64,000 nt of DNA, from assembly GCA_020402945.1 (NCBI GenBank), contig JADBYQ010000010.1, forward strand, positions 631-64,630. The letters are read 5' to 3'. Source of the stretch: Cytophagales bacterium. Lineage in GTDB: Bacteria; Bacteroidota; Bacteroidia; Cytophagales; Cyclobacteriaceae. The position numbers and the translations under genes were made by a program. A model generated the notes under the pieces. That model saw only the letters and a list, made by a program, of their open reading frames with translations. It was not told the origin of the DNA and ran no database searches. Positions within the stretch are counted from its first letter, which is position 1, and every line of letters begins with the position of its first letter. This document shows positions 33,117 to 40,665 of this stretch, piece by piece.

Positions 33117-36100
33117 ATGTATTTGATTTTCGACACGGAAACCACCGGGCTTCCGAGAAATAAGAACGCGCCTTTAACTGATTTCGAAAATTGGCCTCGC
33201 CTGGTGCAGCTCGCCTGGCAGTTGCATGATGGGAAAGGTAATCTTCTGTCGCAACAAAATTTTATCATCAAGCCCGAGGGATTTGACATACCCTTTAAGG
33301 CAGAGCAGGTGCATGGAATCTCCACCAGCCGTGCTATAGAAGAAGGGCACGACTTAAAGTCGGTGCTCGCTCACTTCTCGTCAGATGTCGAAAAAACAGA
33401 AGTACTCGTTGGGCATAACATTGAATTTGACATCTCCATCATTGGCGCAGAGTTACTCCGATCTCTCCTTTCAACCGAGCGTTTTCTCTCACTTCAAAAG
33501 GTGGATACCGGGCTTTCATCGATTGAATTCTGTCAATTAGCGGGAGGCGTGGGTGGCAGATTGAAAATGCCGCGCCTTTCAGAGTTGTATGAAAAACTTT
33601 TTGGCGAGAACTTTCAAGATGCCCACGATGCAGCCTACGATGTAGACGCAACGGCCAAATCGTTCTTTGGGCTGCTCGAAAACAGAGTTCTTTCCCCATA
33701 TGATGCAACTGACATTAACGATATCGTCTACCAGCATCCAACGCTAGATGCAGGTAATTCAACAAAAAGGGTAAAAGCAAAAGGGGTCGATTACAGTGAC
33801 GCGAAGGAAACTCAACTGACAAACAAACCATTTGTTCACCTCCATGTTCATTCACAGTATTCCGTATTGCAAGCTGTACCCGATGTAGCTGAATTAGTAG
33901 CGAAAGCGAAAGCCAATCACATGGAGTCGTTGGCTCTCACCGACTTTGGCAATATGTATGGCGCTTTCAAATTTGTTAGCGAGGCCTTGAAGCACAATAT
34001 CAAACCCATTGTAGGTTGTGAGTTTTTTGTATCTGAAGAAAGGAAGACACTTAAGTTTACAAAAGACAATCCAGACAAAAGATTTCAGCAGGTACTATTC
34101 GCAAAAAACAAAGCAGGCTATCAACATCTGGCAAAACTAAGTTCGATCGGGTTTATCGAAGGGCTTTATGGAATTTATCCGCGTATCGACAGGCAACTTA
34201 TCACTCAATACAAGGACGGATTGATCGCTACCACCGGAAGTCTGCTAGGAGAAGTTCCGTATCTGATTTTACACGTAGGCGAGCGCCAGGCAGAAGAAGC
34301 ATTCAAATGGTGGCACCAACTATTCGGGGCTGATTTTTATATTGAACTGAACCGGCATGGGATGCCTGAAGAAGATCGGGTGAACGAAACCCTTCTAAAG
34401 TTCGCTCATAAATACAACGTCCGCTACTTCGCTGCCAACGAGTGTTTCTATTTGGAAAAAGAAGAATCGAATGCCCATGACGTACTCCTTTGCATCAAAG
34501 AAGGCGAATTTCAGTCAACACCCATTGGGCACGGAAGGGGAACCCGGTACGGGTTAACTAACAATCAATTCTATTTCAAATCGCAGGATGAAATGAAATC
34601 GCTTTTTCGCGATATGCCGGAAGCGATTGAAACCATCAACGAAATCATAGATAAGGTAGAGAAATATGAGCTCAAGAGAGATGTGCTTCTTCCGAAGTTT
34701 ACCATCCCTGCTGAATTCTCTACTGAAGACGAGTATCTCCGCTTTCTCACTTACGAAGGAGCTAAGAAACGATATCCCACACTAACACCAGAAACGAAAG
34801 AAAGAATTGATTTTGAATTAGAAACGATAAAGAAAACCGGCTACCCCGGCTATTTTTTGATCGTTCAGGATTTCACTTCGAAAGCACGCGAAATGGGCGT
34901 GTCCGTTGGCCCGGGACGTGGATCGGCAGCAGGATCAGCCGTTGCCTATTGCATCGGAATTACTAATGTAGACCCCATTGCTTACGATCTACTCTTTGAG
35001 CGTTTTCTAAATCCCGATCGTGTTTCTCTGCCAGATATTGATATTGACTTTGACGATGAAGGACGCGACAAAGTATTGCAATACGTGATCGAAAAGTATG
35101 GCCACAACCAAGTGGCACAAATCATTACCTACGGCACCATGGCAGCCAAGTCATCCATTCGCGACTGCGCGCGTGTGATGGAATTACCGCTGACAGAATC
35201 GAACAATTTGGCCAAGCTCGTCCCCGAGCGCCCGGGCACTACGCTGGCAAAGGCGTTTGAAGAAGTAAAAGAACTCAGCGATGTAAAAAAGGGAACCGAC
35301 TTAAAGGCACAGGTTTTAAAGCAAGCCGTCATCCTAGAAGGCTCTCTTCGCAATACAGGAACGCATGCCTGTGGTGTCATCATTACACCCGATGATCTCA
35401 CCAAGTTTGTACCGGTTTCTACCGCTAAAGATTCTTCGATGCTGGTCACTCAATTCGACAACAGCGTGGTAGAAAGTGCAGGCATGTTGAAAATGGACTT
35501 TTTAGGGTTGACTACCCTCACCATTATTACTACCGCGATTAGAAACATAAAGAAGCGCAAGGGAATCAGCATCGACATCGATCAGATTCCCTTGAACGAT
35601 TTAAAAACGTATCAACTCTACCAACGTGGAGAAACCACCGGCACCTTTCAGTTCGAATCGGATGGTATGCAAGCCTATCTAAAAGGGTTAAAGCCAGATA
35701 AGTTTGAAGACCTCATCGCGATGAATGCCTTGTACCGGCCTGGTCCGATGGAATACATCCCTAATTTCATTGCTAGAAAGCATGGTCGTGAGCCCATCAA
35801 ATACGACTTACCAGAAATGGAGGAGTATTTGAAAGATACCTATGGCATTACCGTTTATCAGGAACAGGTGATGTTGCTTTCGCAAAAGCTTGCCAATTTT
35901 TCAAAGGGCGATGCCGATGTGTTGCGTAAAGCGATGGGAAAGAAGCAGAAAGACGTTCTCGATAAAATGAAAAGCAAGTTTGTCGAAGGATGTAAAAAGA
36001 ACAATCACGATGAGCGCATCTCTGAAAAAATATGGAAAGACTGGGAAGCTTTTGCACAATATGCGTTCAACAAATCACACTCTACCTGCTACTCATTAGT

Positions 36101-37403
36101 TGCCTATCACACGGCTTTTCTAAAAGCCAACTACCCGGCTGAGTACATGGCGGCTGTGTTAACGCATTCACAAAGCAACCTGGATAGCGTTACCTATTTT
36201 ATTGAAGAATGTAGAAAACAAAATATAGAAGTACTAGGCCCACACGTGAACGAATCGGGTGTTTACTTTGAAGTAAATAAAGAAGGGAAAATTAGATTTG
36301 GTTTGGGCGCGATCAAAGGCGCAGGGGATGCGGCAGTTGAGGCCATCATTCAAGAGCGCGAAGCCAAAGGTGCTTTCAAAGATATTTTTGAATTTGCGAA
36401 ACGACTCAGTCAACGAGCGGTTAATAAAAAAACATTTGAATGCCTCGCGTTGTCGGGAGCGTTTGATTGCTTCCCGGAATATCACAGGAGACAATATATT
36501 GCCGCGAAGGACGGAGATATCTCACTGACGGAGAAAGTCATTAAGTACTCCGCCAAAATACAACAAGAATCGCAGAGCGCACAGGCTAGTTTATTTGGCG
36601 GTGCCAGCGGCACACAAATGCCGCTACCAAAGATTGACCCCATCGAGCCTTTCAGCGAAATCGAAAAACTACATTTTGAAAAAGAAGTAGTGGGCGTATA
36701 TATCTCAGGACATCCACTCGACAATTTCAAGTTTGAGATGGAAGTTTTCTGCAATACACCGGTGGCTTCCCTAACTGAACTTGAGGGTAACGAAGGCAAA
36801 GAATGTAAAGTGGGTGGAAATGTAGCTTCTGTAGAACATCGCATGACAAAAACGGGGCGGCCTTTTGGAAAGTTATTCTTAGAAGACTACAGTGGAAAAA
36901 GTGAGATCGTGCTGTGGAGTGACGATTACCTGAAGTTCAAATCGTTTTTGATGCCCGGTCTGTTCTTATTTATTGAGGGTAACATCGTCCGCAAATCCTG
37001 GGGCGAACAAAACCTGGAGTTTAAAATCCGGTCTGTCGATTTGCTCAATGAACTCGCAACTAAAAAGGTAAACGGCCTTGCTCTTCGATTTGACGTGCAG
37101 TCAGTGACATCACAATTCATAGACTCGATCGACAAGCTATGTAAAAAGAATGCGGGTAGTGCTGCACTGCGGATGTATTTGAAAGACGAAGGCGCTTCGC
37201 TACAAGCAGAGGTTCTTTCCCGTTCTGCCCGGATTAAACCAACCAATTTACTGATCAACGAATTAAAACGTTTGGCGGATGTCGGTGTAGTAACCGACAA
37301 ACAAGAAGTAAGGTGGCTGACCGAGCAACCGCTAAAGCTGAGTCAAAAAACGGAGGTTGGGACAATCTCTCCTGACTTTGTCTTGGAGGAAGTTGAGGTT
37401 TAA
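33117..37403 (+). CDS. dnaE: DNA polymerase III alpha subunit with N-terminal DnaQ-like 3'-5' exonuclease
   Basis: DTETTG...HNIEFD...HDAAYDV exonuclease; HLHVHSQYS PHP domain; GPGRGSAAGS, PDIDIDFD, KMDFLGL and YAFNKSH. Confidence 0.98.
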   Translation: MYLIFDTETTGLPRNKNAPLTDFENWPRLVQLAWQLHDGKGNLLSQQNFIIKPEGFDIPFKAEQVHGISTSRAIEEGHDLKSVLAHFSSDVEKTEVLVGHNIEFDISIIGAELLRSLLSTERFLSLQKVDTGLSSIEFCQLAGGVGGRLKMPRLSELYEKLFGENFQDAHDAAYDVDATAKSFFGLLENRVLSPYDATDINDIVYQHPTLDAGNSTKRVKAKGVDYSDAKETQLTNKPFVHLHVHSQYSVLQAVPDVAELVAKAKANHMESLALTDFGNMYGAFKFVSEALKHNIKPIVGCEFFVSEERKTLKFTKDNPDKRFQQVLFAKNKAGYQHLAKLSSIGFIEGLYGIYPRIDRQLITQYKDGLIATTGSLLGEVPYLILHVGERQAEEAFKWWHQLFGADFYIELNRHGMPEEDRVNETLLKFAHKYNVRYFAANECFYLEKEESNAHDVLLCIKEGEFQSTPIGHGRGTRYGLTNNQFYFKSQDEMKSLFRDMPEAIETINEIIDKVEKYELKRDVLLPKFTIPAEFSTEDEYLRFLTYEGAKKRYPTLTPETKERIDFELETIKKTGYPGYFLIVQDFTSKAREMGVSVGPGRGSAAGSAVAYCIGITNVDPIAYDLLFERFLNPDRVSLPDIDIDFDDEGRDKVLQYVIEKYGHNQVAQIITYGTMAAKSSIRDCARVMELPLTESNNLAKLVPERPGTTLAKAFEEVKELSDVKKGTDLKAQVLKQAVILEGSLRNTGTHACGVIITPDDLTKFVPVSTAKDSSMLVTQFDNSVVESAGMLKMDFLGLTTLTIITTAIRNIKKRKGISIDIDQIPLNDLKTYQLYQRGETTGTFQFESDGMQAYLKGLKPDKFEDLIAMNALYRPGPMEYIPNFIARKHGREPIKYDLPEMEEYLKDTYGITVYQEQVMLLSQKLANFSKGDADVLRKAMGKKQKDVLDKMKSKFVEGCKKNNHDERISEKIWKDWEAFAQYAFNKSHSTCYSLVAYHTAFLKANYPAEYMAAVLTHSQSNLDSVTYFIEECRKQNIEVLGPHVNESGVYFEVNKEGKIRFGLGAIKGAGDAAVEAIIQEREAKGAFKDIFEFAKRLSQRAVNKKTFECLALSGAFDCFPEYHRRQYIAAKDGDISLTEKVIKYSAKIQQESQSAQASLFGGASGTQMPLPKIDPIEPFSEIEKLHFEKEVVGVYISGHPLDNFKFEMEVFCNTPVASLTELEGNEGKECKVGGNVASVEHRMTKTGRPFGKLFLEDYSGKSEIVLWSDDYLKFKSFLMPGLFLFIEGNIVRKSWGEQNLEFKIRSVDLLNELATKKVNGLALRFDVQSVTSQFIDSIDKLCKKNAGSAALRMYLKDEGASLQAEVLSRSARIKPTNLLINELKRLADVGVVTDKQEVRWLTEQPLKLSQKTEVGTISPDFVLEEVEV
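37317..37403 (+). repeat. dnaE 3'-end direct repeat, copy 1 (in the active gene)
   Basis: Encodes LTEQPLKLSQKTEVGTISPDFVLEEVEV*; 72 of 87 nt identical to 39663-39749. Confidence 0.92.
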
Positions 37404-37501
37404 CAACTATTTGCGGTGCAACTCGAGTTGGCACCTTTACAAACGCACATCAACAGGGAGGATGTGACTTAGGTCAGCATCGCATGAATGTAATGTTAAA
37501 T

Positions 37502-37861
37502 TCAACTTATTTTGCCAATACCCAATTGGAAACATAAAGCATCCAATATTTCGAATTGAAGTTTGGACTCTGTTATTTGTCCGTAGATTTTGCTCAATCT
37601 TCTTTTATCAACCGTTCGGATTTGATGGCACAGTACGATGGACTCATTTGACAAACCAAATTGACCCGCAGTAACCAATGCTTCATTTGGATAAATCAAT
37701 CTGCCTGGCTTTCTCGAAGTAATCGGTAGCACGTTAACGATATTCAGAAGCTCATTAATTTGGTCTTCACTGATAATCAATACTGGCCTAGATTTCCCTT
37801 GCTCAGAGCCTACTACCGGATCAAGATCTGCTTTACAAATAGACCATTTTTTGAAAATCAT
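37502..37861 (-). CDS. PemK/MazF family endoribonuclease toxin
   Basis: ADLDPVVGSEQGKSRPVLIIS, VLPITS, LCHQIRTVDKRRL. Confidence 0.93.
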   Translation of the reverse strand: MIFKKWSICKADLDPVVGSEQGKSRPVLIISEDQINELLNIVNVLPITSRKPGRLIYPNEALVTAGQFGLSNESIVLCHQIRTVDKRRLSKIYGQITESKLQFEILDALCFQLGIGKIS

Positions 37862-38082
37862 TAACCCTCATTGTCGATCGGGCTGAAATCATTCCTTACC
37901 GCCTCTACATCTGCCAAAAAAAGTGGGTCGGTAGCTGCCTGTTTTAACAACAATAACTTGGTGGCTGTACTATCCGTAACATCATCTATAGTGACAAGTA
38001 CTTTCATCTTGTTTTTGAATTGCTTAGGCAGGTGAATGATAAGCTGGTTATCGATTACCTCGTATATGCTTCTATGGCTCAT
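37861..38082 (-). CDS. Putative antitoxin of the MazF-family toxin
   Basis: 73 aa, coupled to the toxin start, AbrB-like IIHLPKQF...VLVTI N-terminus and acidic C-terminus. Confidence 0.7.
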   Translation of the reverse strand: MSHRSIYEVIDNQLIIHLPKQFKNKMKVLVTIDDVTDSTATKLLLLKQAATDPLFLADVEAVRNDFSPIDNEG

Positions 38083-38118
38083 TTGTTTTTTTCTGGAACA
38101 AAGTTAAAGAATTTTCGC

Positions 38119-38307
38119 TTACGTCTTGGTAATACATTGCTGCGCCAATAGTTTTCGTAAACTGTTTTCTTCGCGGTTCCTTATACGCGGAGTCCCCGAA
38201 GCGGGAGACTCCGCTGCGAAGTGGATCCCATAGATCAAATTCAAGACCCTATCATCAGCATGGTTAATGTACTCATGCAATGCTTCTCTGATTTGTGCTG
38301 ATCCCAT
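38119..38307 (-). pseudogene. Probable truncated antitoxin-like gene fused to a hairpin element
   Basis: N-terminal MGSAQIREALHEYINHADDRVLNLIYG looks like a real helical protein; the rest reads through the 38187-38214 inverted repeat. Confidence 0.45.
38187..38214. repeat. REP-like GC-rich hairpin
   Basis: GCGGAGTC-CCC-GAAGC-GGG-A-GACTCCGC. Confidence 0.6.
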
Positions 38308-38400
38308 AACCTATTTGTTTGATACTACAAAAATAGCGATTTCATGATTCTTCCAGATTTCAGGTGCATCTGCGTCTTATGATTCATTATCATCAATTGA

Positions 38401-38778
38401 TCACTGTAGTGCATAGGGATTAATCAATTGCAAACCTTCAATGTTTTGAAAGTCACTGGTATTTCTAGAAATCAATATCTGATTATTAACCAGGGCGGTG
38501 GCTGCAATAATGGAATCGGGTAATTTGATGTTATGCTGTTGCCTTATACCTATAGCCCTTAAGGCAATAGCTTGATTGATGTTATCGTAAACGGTGGAGG
38601 TATTAACGAAACCTTCCAATGCCCTCCTCTCCTTGTCGGGAATCTTACTGCTTGCAAAAAGTTCAATGCGAGTAATCACAGACATGGCAGGATCAATTCC
38701 ATTCAATAAATTTCTAGCCTTTGAAGGGAGCTTTGCATTGCAAAAATCGATTACTACATTGGTATCCAGCAAGTACAT
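38401..38778 (-). CDS. PIN-domain (VapC-like) toxin
   Basis: YLLDTNVVID, SVITRIEL, LPDSIIAATA and LISRNTSDF. Confidence 0.93.
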   Translation of the reverse strand: MYLLDTNVVIDFCNAKLPSKARNLLNGIDPAMSVITRIELFASSKIPDKERRALEGFVNTSTVYDNINQAIALRAIGIRQQHNIKLPDSIIAATALVNNQILISRNTSDFQNIEGLQLINPYALQ

Positions 38779-38783
38779 AATCG

Positions 38784-39032
38784 TCAAAGCTGCTTTTTGA
38801 GTCTGCCTTCCCAACTATCGCGACTTTCGGTCACTGCATTATGCAACTCATCAGCAGTTTCATCGCTTAAGGTTCCCCAAAAGTCGGACATTTTCATTTT
38901 TGGTTCTACACTTTTTTCTTTCGACACCTCATCTACCGCATAAAACAATATTTCTATTTCCTTGCCGATGTAGCTGGCGGGTATAGCCAATTGGTAGCTA
39001 TTGGTTTTTGGTATGGCGATGGTCTTGATCAT
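38784..39032 (-). CDS. Putative VapB-like antitoxin
   Basis: 82 aa directly upstream of the PIN toxin; LAIPASYIGKEIEIL and SDFWGTLS...SRDSW. Confidence 0.75.
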   Translation of the reverse strand: MIKTIAIPKTNSYQLAIPASYIGKEIEILFYAVDEVSKEKSVEPKMKMSDFWGTLSDETADELHNAVTESRDSWEGRLKKQL

Positions 39033-39191
39033 ATTATCTGCTTATTTAATTAATAGTTGTTACTGTAAATCTACTAAATAAATGCCTCTTGAACGGGTAC
39101 CTTTCTGACAGGCAACAAAGGAGGCTTTGTCGGAATTCAGTTAGCAAAAGCGCGCATTGCAGAGGCTGCGCGAAAATGAAGAAAAGTTTAA

Positions 39192-39494
39192 CTATTGTTT
39201 CAAATCCAAATCTCTTTTTAGAAAATCAGCAAGCGCGATATGATAGAGCGATTTTCCTTTTTTCACTTGCCTGGCATACTGCTTCTGCATGGAAACATCT
39301 GCTAATACAGATCGCGCATAGCTTACGGCTTGCTTAAATCGTTTGTTTGCCTTTTTTTGGTTGGCGGTTAGCTTTACCTTTCTTCTGTCCGGCATCTTGG
39401 ATACTACCGTTCCATATTTATACTGTTCAAAAAGCAGCCGGTCAATACGACCGCTAAAGCCCTCTACCAATACATTAGTTTTCAATCGTGCCAT
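39192..39494 (-). CDS. Small basic hypothetical protein
   Basis: MARLKTNVLVEGFSGRI...QKKANKRFKQAVSYARSVL...SLYHIALADFL; strongly basic. Confidence 0.75.
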   Translation of the reverse strand: MARLKTNVLVEGFSGRIDRLLFEQYKYGTVVSKMPDRRKVKLTANQKKANKRFKQAVSYARSVLADVSMQKQYARQVKKGKSLYHIALADFLKRDLDLKQ

Positions 39495-39542
39495 ATAGCC
39501 ATGACTTTAGTTAAGGTACGTACAATTCGGGTAATATCCAAT

Positions 39543-39575
39543 CATAAGCCGTTCGTTAACCGTTCATAAGCCGTT
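39543..39575. repeat. Three tandem 11 bp units
   Basis: CATAAGCCGTT / CGTTAACCGTT / CATAAGCCGTT. Confidence 0.7.
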
Positions 39576-39662
39576 ATTGCTGGCTATTCCTCCCTTGCGA
39601 ACCACCTGTAAAAACCCTAGAAAGATGTAGCAAGTCGAGCCTGACGGATGACCTTCATGACG

Positions 39663-39749
39663 CTGACTGAACAACCACTAAAGTTGAGCCAAAAAACAGA
39701 GGTTGGAACAATTTCTCCTACCTTTGTGTTGGATGAAGTAGAAATTTAA
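39663..39749 (+). repeat. dnaE 3'-end direct repeat, copy 2 (orphan, next to trxA)
   Basis: Encodes [28 protein letters not shown]; ends 26 nt before the trxA ATG. Confidence 0.92.
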
Positions 39750-39775
39750 AAACATACTATAAATTCAATACCGTT

Positions 39776-40099
39776 ATGGGAAAAACCTTAGAACTAACTG
39801 ATGCAACATTTGACGAAACCTTAAAAAGCGATAAACCTGTTTTAGTGGATTTTTGGGCTGAATGGTGCGGCCCATGTAAAATGATTGGCCCCGTTGTAGA
39901 AGAACTGGCTAATGACTATGAAGGAAAGGCAGTGATTGCGAAGTTAAATGTGGATGAAAACCCGCAAGTGACTGCTCGCTTTGGCGTGCGCTCAATCCCT
40001 ACATTGTTGGTTTTTAAAAACGGCCAAATTGTAGACAAACAAGTGGGCGCTGTGCCTAAATCTGTTTTAGCTGGAAAATTGCAAGCTCAAGTAGCTTGA
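39776..40099 (+). CDS. trxA: Thioredoxin
   Basis: [18 protein letters not shown]. Confidence 0.97.
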
Positions 40100-40128
40100 C
40101 AATTTGAAAATTAGTCGATTTGAGAATT

Positions 40129-40157
40129 AGCCAATGATGAAAGTCGTTGGCTTTTTT
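40129..40157 (+). terminator. Probable terminator after trxA
   Basis: AGCCAATGA-TGAAAG-TCGTTGGCT followed by a T tract. Confidence 0.6.
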
Positions 40158-40164
40158 ATTCAAC

Positions 40165-40665
40165 TCAACCAGCGCCTTTTGCAGGTAATACTTTCTTTAA
40201 CCTCTCGACCATTTCCAACACCGCAGGACACACCAGTGTGTTTTTAAAAGTCAAGTCAAGGATTTGCACCATCTTTTTTCGATTGGTGTGTGGATACTCG
40301 CGACACGCTTTCGGTCTATCTTCATAAACGCTGCAATAGTTTTCAGCGTCCAAGAACGGGCAGGGAGAAGATTTTAAAACAAAGTCCTTGTCTTCATCTA
40401 TACGCAAATATTTTTCAATAAAATCGCCCGGCTTCATGCGAAGCGATTTGGCCACGCGCTCTATGTCGGTTTGGTAAAAAATGGGGCTTGTCGTTTTGCA
40501 GCAATTGGCGCACGACAGACAATCTATCTCTTCGAAAACCGAGTCATGCAATTGGTGAAAGGCATCATCAATTACTCTCGCATTTTTGCTTTTTAGTTTC
40601 TGTAAAAACGTGCGGTTCTCGGCCGACTTCTTCTTTGCTTCAACAGCGAATTTTGATAGATCCAT
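40165..40665 (-). CDS. YkgJ family cysteine-cluster protein
   Basis: CLSCANCC, CPFL-CSVYEDRPKACREYP and CP motifs. Confidence 0.9.
   Translation of the reverse strand: MDLSKFAVEAKKKSAENRTFLQKLKSKNARVIDDAFHQLHDSVFEEIDCLSCANCCKTTSPIFYQTDIERVAKSLRMKPGDFIEKYLRIDEDKDFVLKSSPCPFLDAENYCSVYEDRPKACREYPHTNRKKMVQILDLTFKNTLVCPAVLEMVERLKKVLPAKGAG

Follow-up and report, generated by a model that had tools for sequence, protein, structure and literature searches.

In Escherichia coli, e14 and phage 21 integrate into icd, which leaves the 3' end of the gene duplicated, with mostly synonymous differences in the in-gene copy and with the native-type end displaced. Hot spots of flexible genomic islands, to our knowledge, normally lack a duplicated piece of the flanking gene. 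Here we describe a locus that shares traits with both kinds of system. It lies in a window of 64,000 nt, the whole stretch of DNA analysed (contig JADBYQ010000010.1 of assembly GCA_020402945.1, positions 631 to 64,630 of the forward strand), from an uncultured member of the Cytophagales whose relatives are labelled Cyclobacteriaceae or Ohtaekwangia-like. Between dnaE, encoding the DNA polymerase III alpha subunit, and the thioredoxin gene trxA, the window carries an islet of toxin–antitoxin (TA) genes bracketed by two copies of the dnaE end. The islet is best explained, with moderate confidence, as a reduced flexible island flanked by a duplication through which the two roles of one segment, coding and promoter, were divided between its copies. 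A dedicated dnaE-targeting mobile element appears neither to be needed to explain it nor to be demonstrable, and our literature search found no element integrated at a dnaE end.

The duplicated dnaE end and the empty site

The dnaE gene (33117–37403, plus strand, 1428 aa) is open up to its stop codon at 37403, with Pfam matches to PHP, DNA_pol3_alpha, HHH_6 and other families obtained on the identical gene of contig L136. The target gene is intact, and direct repeats from its 3' end flank the insert. The in-gene tail, copy A (37317–37403, plus strand; 28 codons and the stop), still encodes the DnaE C-terminus. The orphan tail, copy B (39663–39749, plus strand), lies outside dnaE and ends 26 nt before the trxA ATG at 39776. 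The 2,259-nt block between the two copies has all its genes on the minus strand. Direct alignment of the copies gave 72 identical nucleotides out of 87; 14 codons differ, 11 of them by one synonymous change and three by non-synonymous changes (D/T, involving 2 nt, E/D and V/I), and the peptides are identical at 25 of 28 residues. We thereby reproduce the core observation of an initial annotation of the window, which had noted the last 29 codons of dnaE twice around ~2.26 kb of opposite-strand TA genes, with 11 of 15 differences synonymous. Outside the repeat the flanks are unrelated, 44 of 150 positions being identical upstream and 33 of 100 downstream, both at chance level. The ungapped score of the pair, calculated from the direct alignment at +2/−3, is ~99, compared with a mean of 20.9 and a maximum of 30 for shuffled tails matched against the islet, and no further decayed tails within the islet rose above this shuffle null. 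An exact-seed repeat scan did not list the pair because it contains no exact 9-nt seed, the longest exact run being 8 nt; the comparison therefore relies on the direct alignment.

Of 80 related genomes, 72 have trxA as the next gene downstream of dnaE, at a distance of 11–253 nt. The closest species-level relative, G001, has a dnaE that is ~92% identical and an empty site that consists of the dnaE stop codon, 26 nt and trxA, in agreement with the earlier proposal that foreign DNA was inserted at the dnaE 3' end. The in-gene tail of G001 differs from orphan copy B at 6 of 87 positions and from copy A at 15 of 87. Polarised by outgroups, the 15 differences between A and B comprise nine changes derived in A, one derived in B and five ambiguous cases. 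The G001 tail and this polarity identify the orphan as the ancestral-type tail and the translated copy as the changed one; a native-type orphan by trxA and a diverged copy in the gene agree with the displacement of the native end on which the initial annotation had drawn. At one of the sites changed in A, the in-gene tail of L129 retains the ancestral GTG, which indicates that change in copy A is continuing in place, and we infer that copy A diverged where it stands. Recombination within the species complex has made a mosaic of the remainder of dnaE: across 33117–37316, identity to G001, G041 and G042 in 300-nt windows ranges from 83% to 98%, with the closest partner switching along the gene.

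A conserved block upstream of trxA within the dnaE end

The region upstream of trxA contains a conserved block with the consensus (T/G)GAAC-N9/10-TAnnTTTG(C/T)GTT, which 73 of 86 non-redundant loci carry 54–80 nt before the trxA ATG. In distant relatives with long spacers the block lies outside the coding sequence, and where relatives with such an intergenic block have dnaE and trxA apart (G004, G009 and G013) the tail is not duplicated and the block stays by trxA. In the clade of the window, where the spacers measure 11–50 nt, it falls within the last ~15 codons of dnaE (…VGTISPTFVLE…). Its TAnnTTTG part equals the −7 box of Bacteroidetes sigma-A promoters, which occupies positions −12 to −5 (PMC9723704). 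Copy B carries the block as GGAAC (39705–39709), TACCTTTG (39719–39726), which fits the −7 consensus ~50 nt before the trxA ATG, and GTT (39728–39730). In copy A the block is degenerate, with GGGAC at 37359–37363 and TGACTTTG at 37373–37380, followed by GTCTT.

Across 40 island-free genomes, pairwise identity at third codon positions is 0.83 in the 10 codons of the block, compared with 0.36 across the 98 codons that precede it and 0.42 where residues are well conserved. A matrix built exclusively from 34 intergenic blocks found its single best match on either strand of the 64-kb window in copy B (39717, 18.6 bits), and gave copy A 3.3 bits. With the full matrix, the window orphan scored 48.1 bits and G001 49.5 bits, and the in-gene copies of the four two-tail genomes (the window, G041, G042 and G043) scored 19.6, −13.1, 1.9 and 6.6 bits, respectively. 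All four genomes have kept the block in the orphan and lost it in the gene. The intergenic-only matrix, the third codon positions and the retention of the block by trxA each speak for a second, overlapping role of this segment at the nucleotide level. In the orphans of G041 and L133 the stop codon has changed from TAA to GAA, and these orphans are therefore not maintained as coding sequence. Among more distant relatives in which dnaE and trxA are apart, G013, G009 and L087 showed no tail duplication, and L089 contains low-complexity repeats only. Its 726-nt dnaE–trxA spacer (L089, 10950–11470) is full of tandem repeats rich in GAACTC/GGAACT that resemble the GAAC half of the block. The block can, in addition, be read as an extracytoplasmic function (ECF)-type GAAC-N17-CGTT that overlaps the sigma-A −7 box; if true, this ECF reading would suggest stress-responsive control of trxA in Cytophagales.

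We infer that the block is a candidate promoter of trxA, and we propose that the dnaE 3' end would be bifunctional in this clade, encoding the DnaE C-terminus and containing an upstream element of trxA with a predicted sigma-A −7 box. Two tail copies would bracket the island because of this double role: DNA between dnaE and trxA would be tolerated only if both functions survived, which would require duplication of the tail. Copy A would then have retained its reading frame but not the promoter-like block, and copy B would have retained the block at the nucleotide level but not its coding role. The signatures of such a subfunctionalisation are the loss of the block in A (19.6 versus 48.1 bits) and the separation of B from dnaE, the promoter function itself being predicted from sequence. 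Most differences between the two copies would be synonymous, with no need for a foreign dnaE allele, because changes in A must pass selection on the protein and B is held fixed by the cis-element. There is no need to assume, as the initial annotation did, that both copies were selected as protein: the promoter-like block upstream of trxA accounts for the conservation of the orphan, and the synonymous bias results from the fact that at least 9 of the 15 changes fell in the copy that is still translated.

Island variants at the dnaE–trxA junction and competing explanations

In G041, G042 and G043, dnaE and trxA are likewise separated, with an orphan tail adjoining trxA; the island exceeds 10 kb in G041 and measures 15.6 kb in G043, where it is complete. 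The cargo of these islands includes a LuxR-type response regulator that abuts the orphan, Rhs/DUF6443/SpvB-type toxin genes, genes for outer-membrane and MORN proteins and a DUF5615/DUF433 TA pair. G043 carries this response-regulator island even though its dnaE is only ~77% identical; no response-regulator remnant was found in the islet of the window. Additional layouts were obtained from metagenome contigs and exact-protein look-ups. Contigs L132, L137 and L139 contain MazEF, VapBC and an open reading frame (ORF) of 100 aa, followed by genes for a 592-aa protein, a protein with a type IX secretion system (T9SS) signal (CHU_C), a TonB_C/MORN protein, a protein resembling transposases associated with repetitive extragenic palindromes (RAYT-like; weak Y1_Tnp match) and Rhs proteins. 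MazEF, a DUF433 gene and the 100-aa ORF make up the layout of L140, L141, L144 and L145, and the island of L133 measures 3.2 kb and comprises DUF5615/DUF433, the 100-aa ORF and genes for a RAYT-like protein and the response regulator, with the orphan and trxA next.

At least five cargo layouts thus occur between dnaE and trxA at 92–96% flank identity, and this variable content between the same conserved genes in close relatives is that of a flexible island or hot spot. Other cargo at the same site, which the initial annotation had anticipated, is present in relatives as TA modules, Rhs toxins, a LuxR-type regulator and T9SS proteins. Window positions 39184–39654, comprising the 100-aa ORF and its flank, are 87–90% identical to L130, L131, L133 and L134, and it is because of this identity across variants that we regard the islands as modular relatives and that of the window as the shortest. 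At 2.26 kb, the block would be the shortest variant known of a flexible island that is old, modular and non-autonomous and that occupies the dnaE–trxA junction in a species complex of uncultured Cytophagales.

The reduction of the island can be traced at its right end. Up to ~39660, the window aligns with internal DNA of L130, L132 and L133 located just to the right of the 100-aa ORF; there the alignment ends and the sequence enters the orphan at −87. The orphans of G042 and L133 reach at least 21 nt further upstream (to −108 or beyond), with decayed similarity to about −150, the orphan of G041 starts at about the same point as that of the window (−87) and the orphan of G043 is recognisable only from about −70. 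The internal island homology up to ~39660, together with the longer orphans of G042 and L133, identifies the GCTGAC start of the orphan as a secondary deletion endpoint. This hexamer had been described as an abrupt start of homology; it marks a deletion junction and is not an att core, the left edge of the orphan varies among G041, G042, L133 and G043, and no constant att boundary or core was found across the occurrences. In the window, non-coding island DNA (39495–39662) ends in this junction (about 39655–39662), with the orphan truncated at −87. The window version would have arisen from a longer island, of the L132/L137 type, through a deletion with one end just beyond the right-hand side of the 100-aa ORF and the other within the 5' portion of the orphan. 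An in-frame ATG (39657–39659) at the junction, directly 5' of the orphan, opens a 30-codon ORF (39657–39749) that would encode the DnaE C-terminus as a separate peptide; nothing indicates that it is expressed, and it has probably arisen by chance.

Several points weigh against a reduced island with a divided coding-plus-promoter segment. The mechanism of the first duplication is conjectural: we favour a single crossover of the Campbell type, with a copy of the tail on the circular DNA, or an integrase that was later lost. The canonical −33 TTTG of sigma-A promoters lies ~19–21 nt upstream of the −7 box, a spacing that the conserved GAAC, 9–10 nt from the −7 box, does not fit, and the block may rather serve as a promoter of the ECF type (GAAC-N17-CGTT) or as a site for a regulator. 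The putative promoter role is deduced from conservation and from the match to the published TAnnTTTG box (PMC9723704). Furthermore, the in-gene tails of G041/G042 and of G043 differ from the B type at ~16 of 30 positions, and the rest of dnaE differs by 7–8% within the complex. Such a number is too high for neutral drift in a complex with 92–93% identity and therefore argues for an old duplication with deep-branching alleles, for positive selection or for import. Finally, tail type is linked to the first cassette, the window type occurring with MazEF and the G041 type with DUF5615/DUF433, a linkage that would be equally expected if each cassette brought its own tail.

Import is at the heart of the interpretation given in the initial annotation, namely a site-specific integrative element that targets the dnaE 3' end with its own recoded tail as attP, in the manner of e14 and phage 21 in icd, the window holding a decayed or trans-mobilised remnant with its integrase lost or located elsewhere. 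We consider this unlikely, even though the predicted topology is present (direct repeats, with the native-type copy by trxA and the diverged one inside dnaE), G001 has an empty site, and three or four in-gene tail types are each linked to a different cassette and strongly recoded, as in the G041/G042 and G043 tails. The genome of the window encodes six tyrosine recombinases (PF00589), all on six other contigs and none on the contig of the window, which could in principle act in trans. However, the integrase-bearing version that such an element would imply did not appear: no integrase, excisionase or relaxase was found in ~7 island variants from relatives and metagenomes, including the complete 15.6-kb island of G043, and a Pfam profile search detected no recombinase domain in the islet. 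The left edge of the orphan is inconstant, and in the window it is a deletion junction; serial displaced tails are absent from the islet; the cargo includes ordinary chromosomal gene types; and the conservation of the orphan is explained by the trxA block. Among the 22 contigs read, an identical MazF adjoins dnaE in every contig with genes listed, and the islet is single-copy in its own genome. We found no occurrence of it at another site, in another host or on a free replicon, and no tail copy of either type in viral contigs.

Alternatively, the duplication may be the same and copy A may have been recoded by positive selection, either to silence a promoter firing antisense into the minus-strand TA/Rhs genes or to lower the identity between A and B and thereby counter RecA-dependent deletion. 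The changes in A do strike the three most informative sub-motifs (GGAAC to GGGAC, TA to TG and GTT to CTT), the recoding in G041/G042 and G043 clusters around the −7 box, at a density far above that in the other parts of dnaE, and the island genes next to dnaE all lie on the opposite strand. Nevertheless, 29 codons provide no statistical power against relaxed constraint and L129 keeps one ancestral motif base, and we regard such selection as quite improbable. There is, likewise, a rather small chance that integrase-less cassettes, TA modules first, repeatedly enter the dnaE 3' end by RecA-dependent Campbell-type crossover or with the help of a trans-acting recombinase, each with a recoded, promoter-dead tail; if true, the linkage of tail type and first cassette would reflect the cassettes rather than proximity.

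An assembly artefact, with two strains carrying different dnaE alleles stitched together, is extremely improbable, although the genome is a metagenome-assembled genome in 136 contigs and Logan unitigs break at 37368 and 39718, within copies A and B: the two junctions occur at 99–100% identity in assemblies of several runs (L142, L143 and L147–L154), the copies share no exact run longer than 8 nt and therefore cannot confuse a k-mer assembler, and G043 and L133 have the two-tail layout on single contigs. The islet sequence is reproduced at this identity in independent Logan and JGI assemblies of other runs, with the right junction (VapBC, 100-aa ORF, orphan and trxA) present in L147, L148, L150 and L154, the left junction (dnaE and MazEF) in L142 and L143, and the interior, from within copy A to within copy B, in L149. 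The layout of the islet is not an assembly chimera, and the strain chimerism about which the initial annotation had been cautious can be set aside. Logan unitigs L149, L151 and L152 end where the copies become identical to the tails of other island types, and the unitig ends within A and B suggest that several island variants co-occur in the same samples.

Genes of the islet and comparison with known systems

The islet carries two type II TA modules, as judged from sequence by a toxin-family domain and an adjoining small, antitoxin-sized ORF in each. The MazF/PemK-family toxin gene (37502–37861, minus strand, 119 aa; PF02452, E = 3e-25, with NCBIfam MazF models below cut-offs) has a 1-nt overlap at its start with a 73-aa ORF (37861–38082, minus strand), a putative MazE-type antitoxin by position and size. 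The VapC-type PIN-domain toxin gene (38401–38778, minus strand, 125 aa from the ATG at 38778; PF01850, E = 2.9e-13, with VapC NCBIfam models below cut-offs) is preceded, 5 nt upstream, by an 82-aa ORF (38784–39032, minus strand), a putative VapB-type antitoxin on the same grounds. Neither of these small ORFs matched a family in Pfam or NCBIfam. The two modules are cargo that may stabilise the region.

The basic 100-aa ORF (MARLK…; 39192–39494, minus strand) is the one module common to every island variant examined in the species complex of the window. Its family is small, with more distant members in ordinary chromosomal contexts, and for these reasons we rejected it as a hidden recombination factor. 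Upstream of it, a tandem direct repeat (CATAAGCCGTT twice, 22 nt apart; 39535–39575), conserved in L130–L133, may be an operator. A GC-rich hairpin repeat resembling a repetitive extragenic palindrome (REP-like; GCGGAGTCCCCGAAGCGGGAGACTCCGC) lies at 38175–38221 between the TA modules, and nine further copies are found on seven other contigs of the same genome. The hairpin also occurs in the islands of relatives, where RAYT-like ORFs of 175 and 198 aa with weak Y1_Tnp matches are present as well (L132 and L133). A doubtful 62-aa ORF (38119–38307) that overlaps the hairpin is probably not a gene. Beyond the islet, trxA (39776–40099, plus strand, 107 aa; PF00085, E = 3.2e-34) is followed by a terminator-like hairpin at 40129–40152, identified in the terminator scan. 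An Rfam scan of 37000–40300 returned nothing relevant, and a sigma-70 pattern scan, with a pattern not suited to Bacteroidetes, remained at chance level.

If the dnaE end is indeed bifunctional, the locus offers a natural experiment in which overlapping functions, a protein C-terminus and the promoter of a neighbouring gene, have been separated. It cautions that mostly synonymous divergence of duplicated gene ends is, by itself, no proof of an imported allele or of a gene-targeting mobile element. The analysis also defines an order-wide Cytophagales motif upstream of trxA, GAAC-N9/10-TAnnTTTG(C/T)GTT, as a candidate sigma-A or stress/ECF promoter, and marks the dnaE–trxA junction as a site where, in this lineage, TA and Rhs toxin cargo has settled repeatedly. 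Annotators should describe the orphan as a regulatory region or a pseudogene fragment and not as an att site.

With respect to its genes, the islet resembles chromosomal type II TA systems of the MazEF and VapBC kinds in the Pfam toxin matches, the small upstream ORFs and the usual overlap or 5-nt spacing, but the antitoxin ORFs match no known family and TA activity is predicted. The block upstream of trxA resembles Bacteroidetes sigma-A promoters (PMC9723704) in its −7 match and in the order-wide conservation of homologous blocks, whereas GAAC is located 9–10 nt away rather than at −33 and the whole block also fits GAAC-N17-CGTT. With e14 and phage 21 in icd the locus shares insertion at the 3' end of a core gene, a duplicated end, a synonymous-biased in-gene copy and a displaced orphan. 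Unlike in those systems, genes for an integrase, an excisionase or phage proteins are absent from every variant, the repeat has no fixed boundary, the cargo consists of TA, Rhs and regulator genes, and the orphan would be under nucleotide-level selection as an upstream element of the neighbouring gene. Flexible islands exchanged by homologous recombination in their flanks are similar in that varied, mosaic cargo occupies one locus in strains that are 92–96% identical; here, in contrast to such hot spots, the duplication is constant in the clade in which the promoter-like block overlaps coding sequence. Finally, as in duplication-degeneration-complementation, a bifunctional segment appears to have been duplicated, with each copy losing one function, but the unit is an overlap of coding end and putative promoter of 87 to ~150 nt rather than a whole gene, and it would have come with the insertion of an island.

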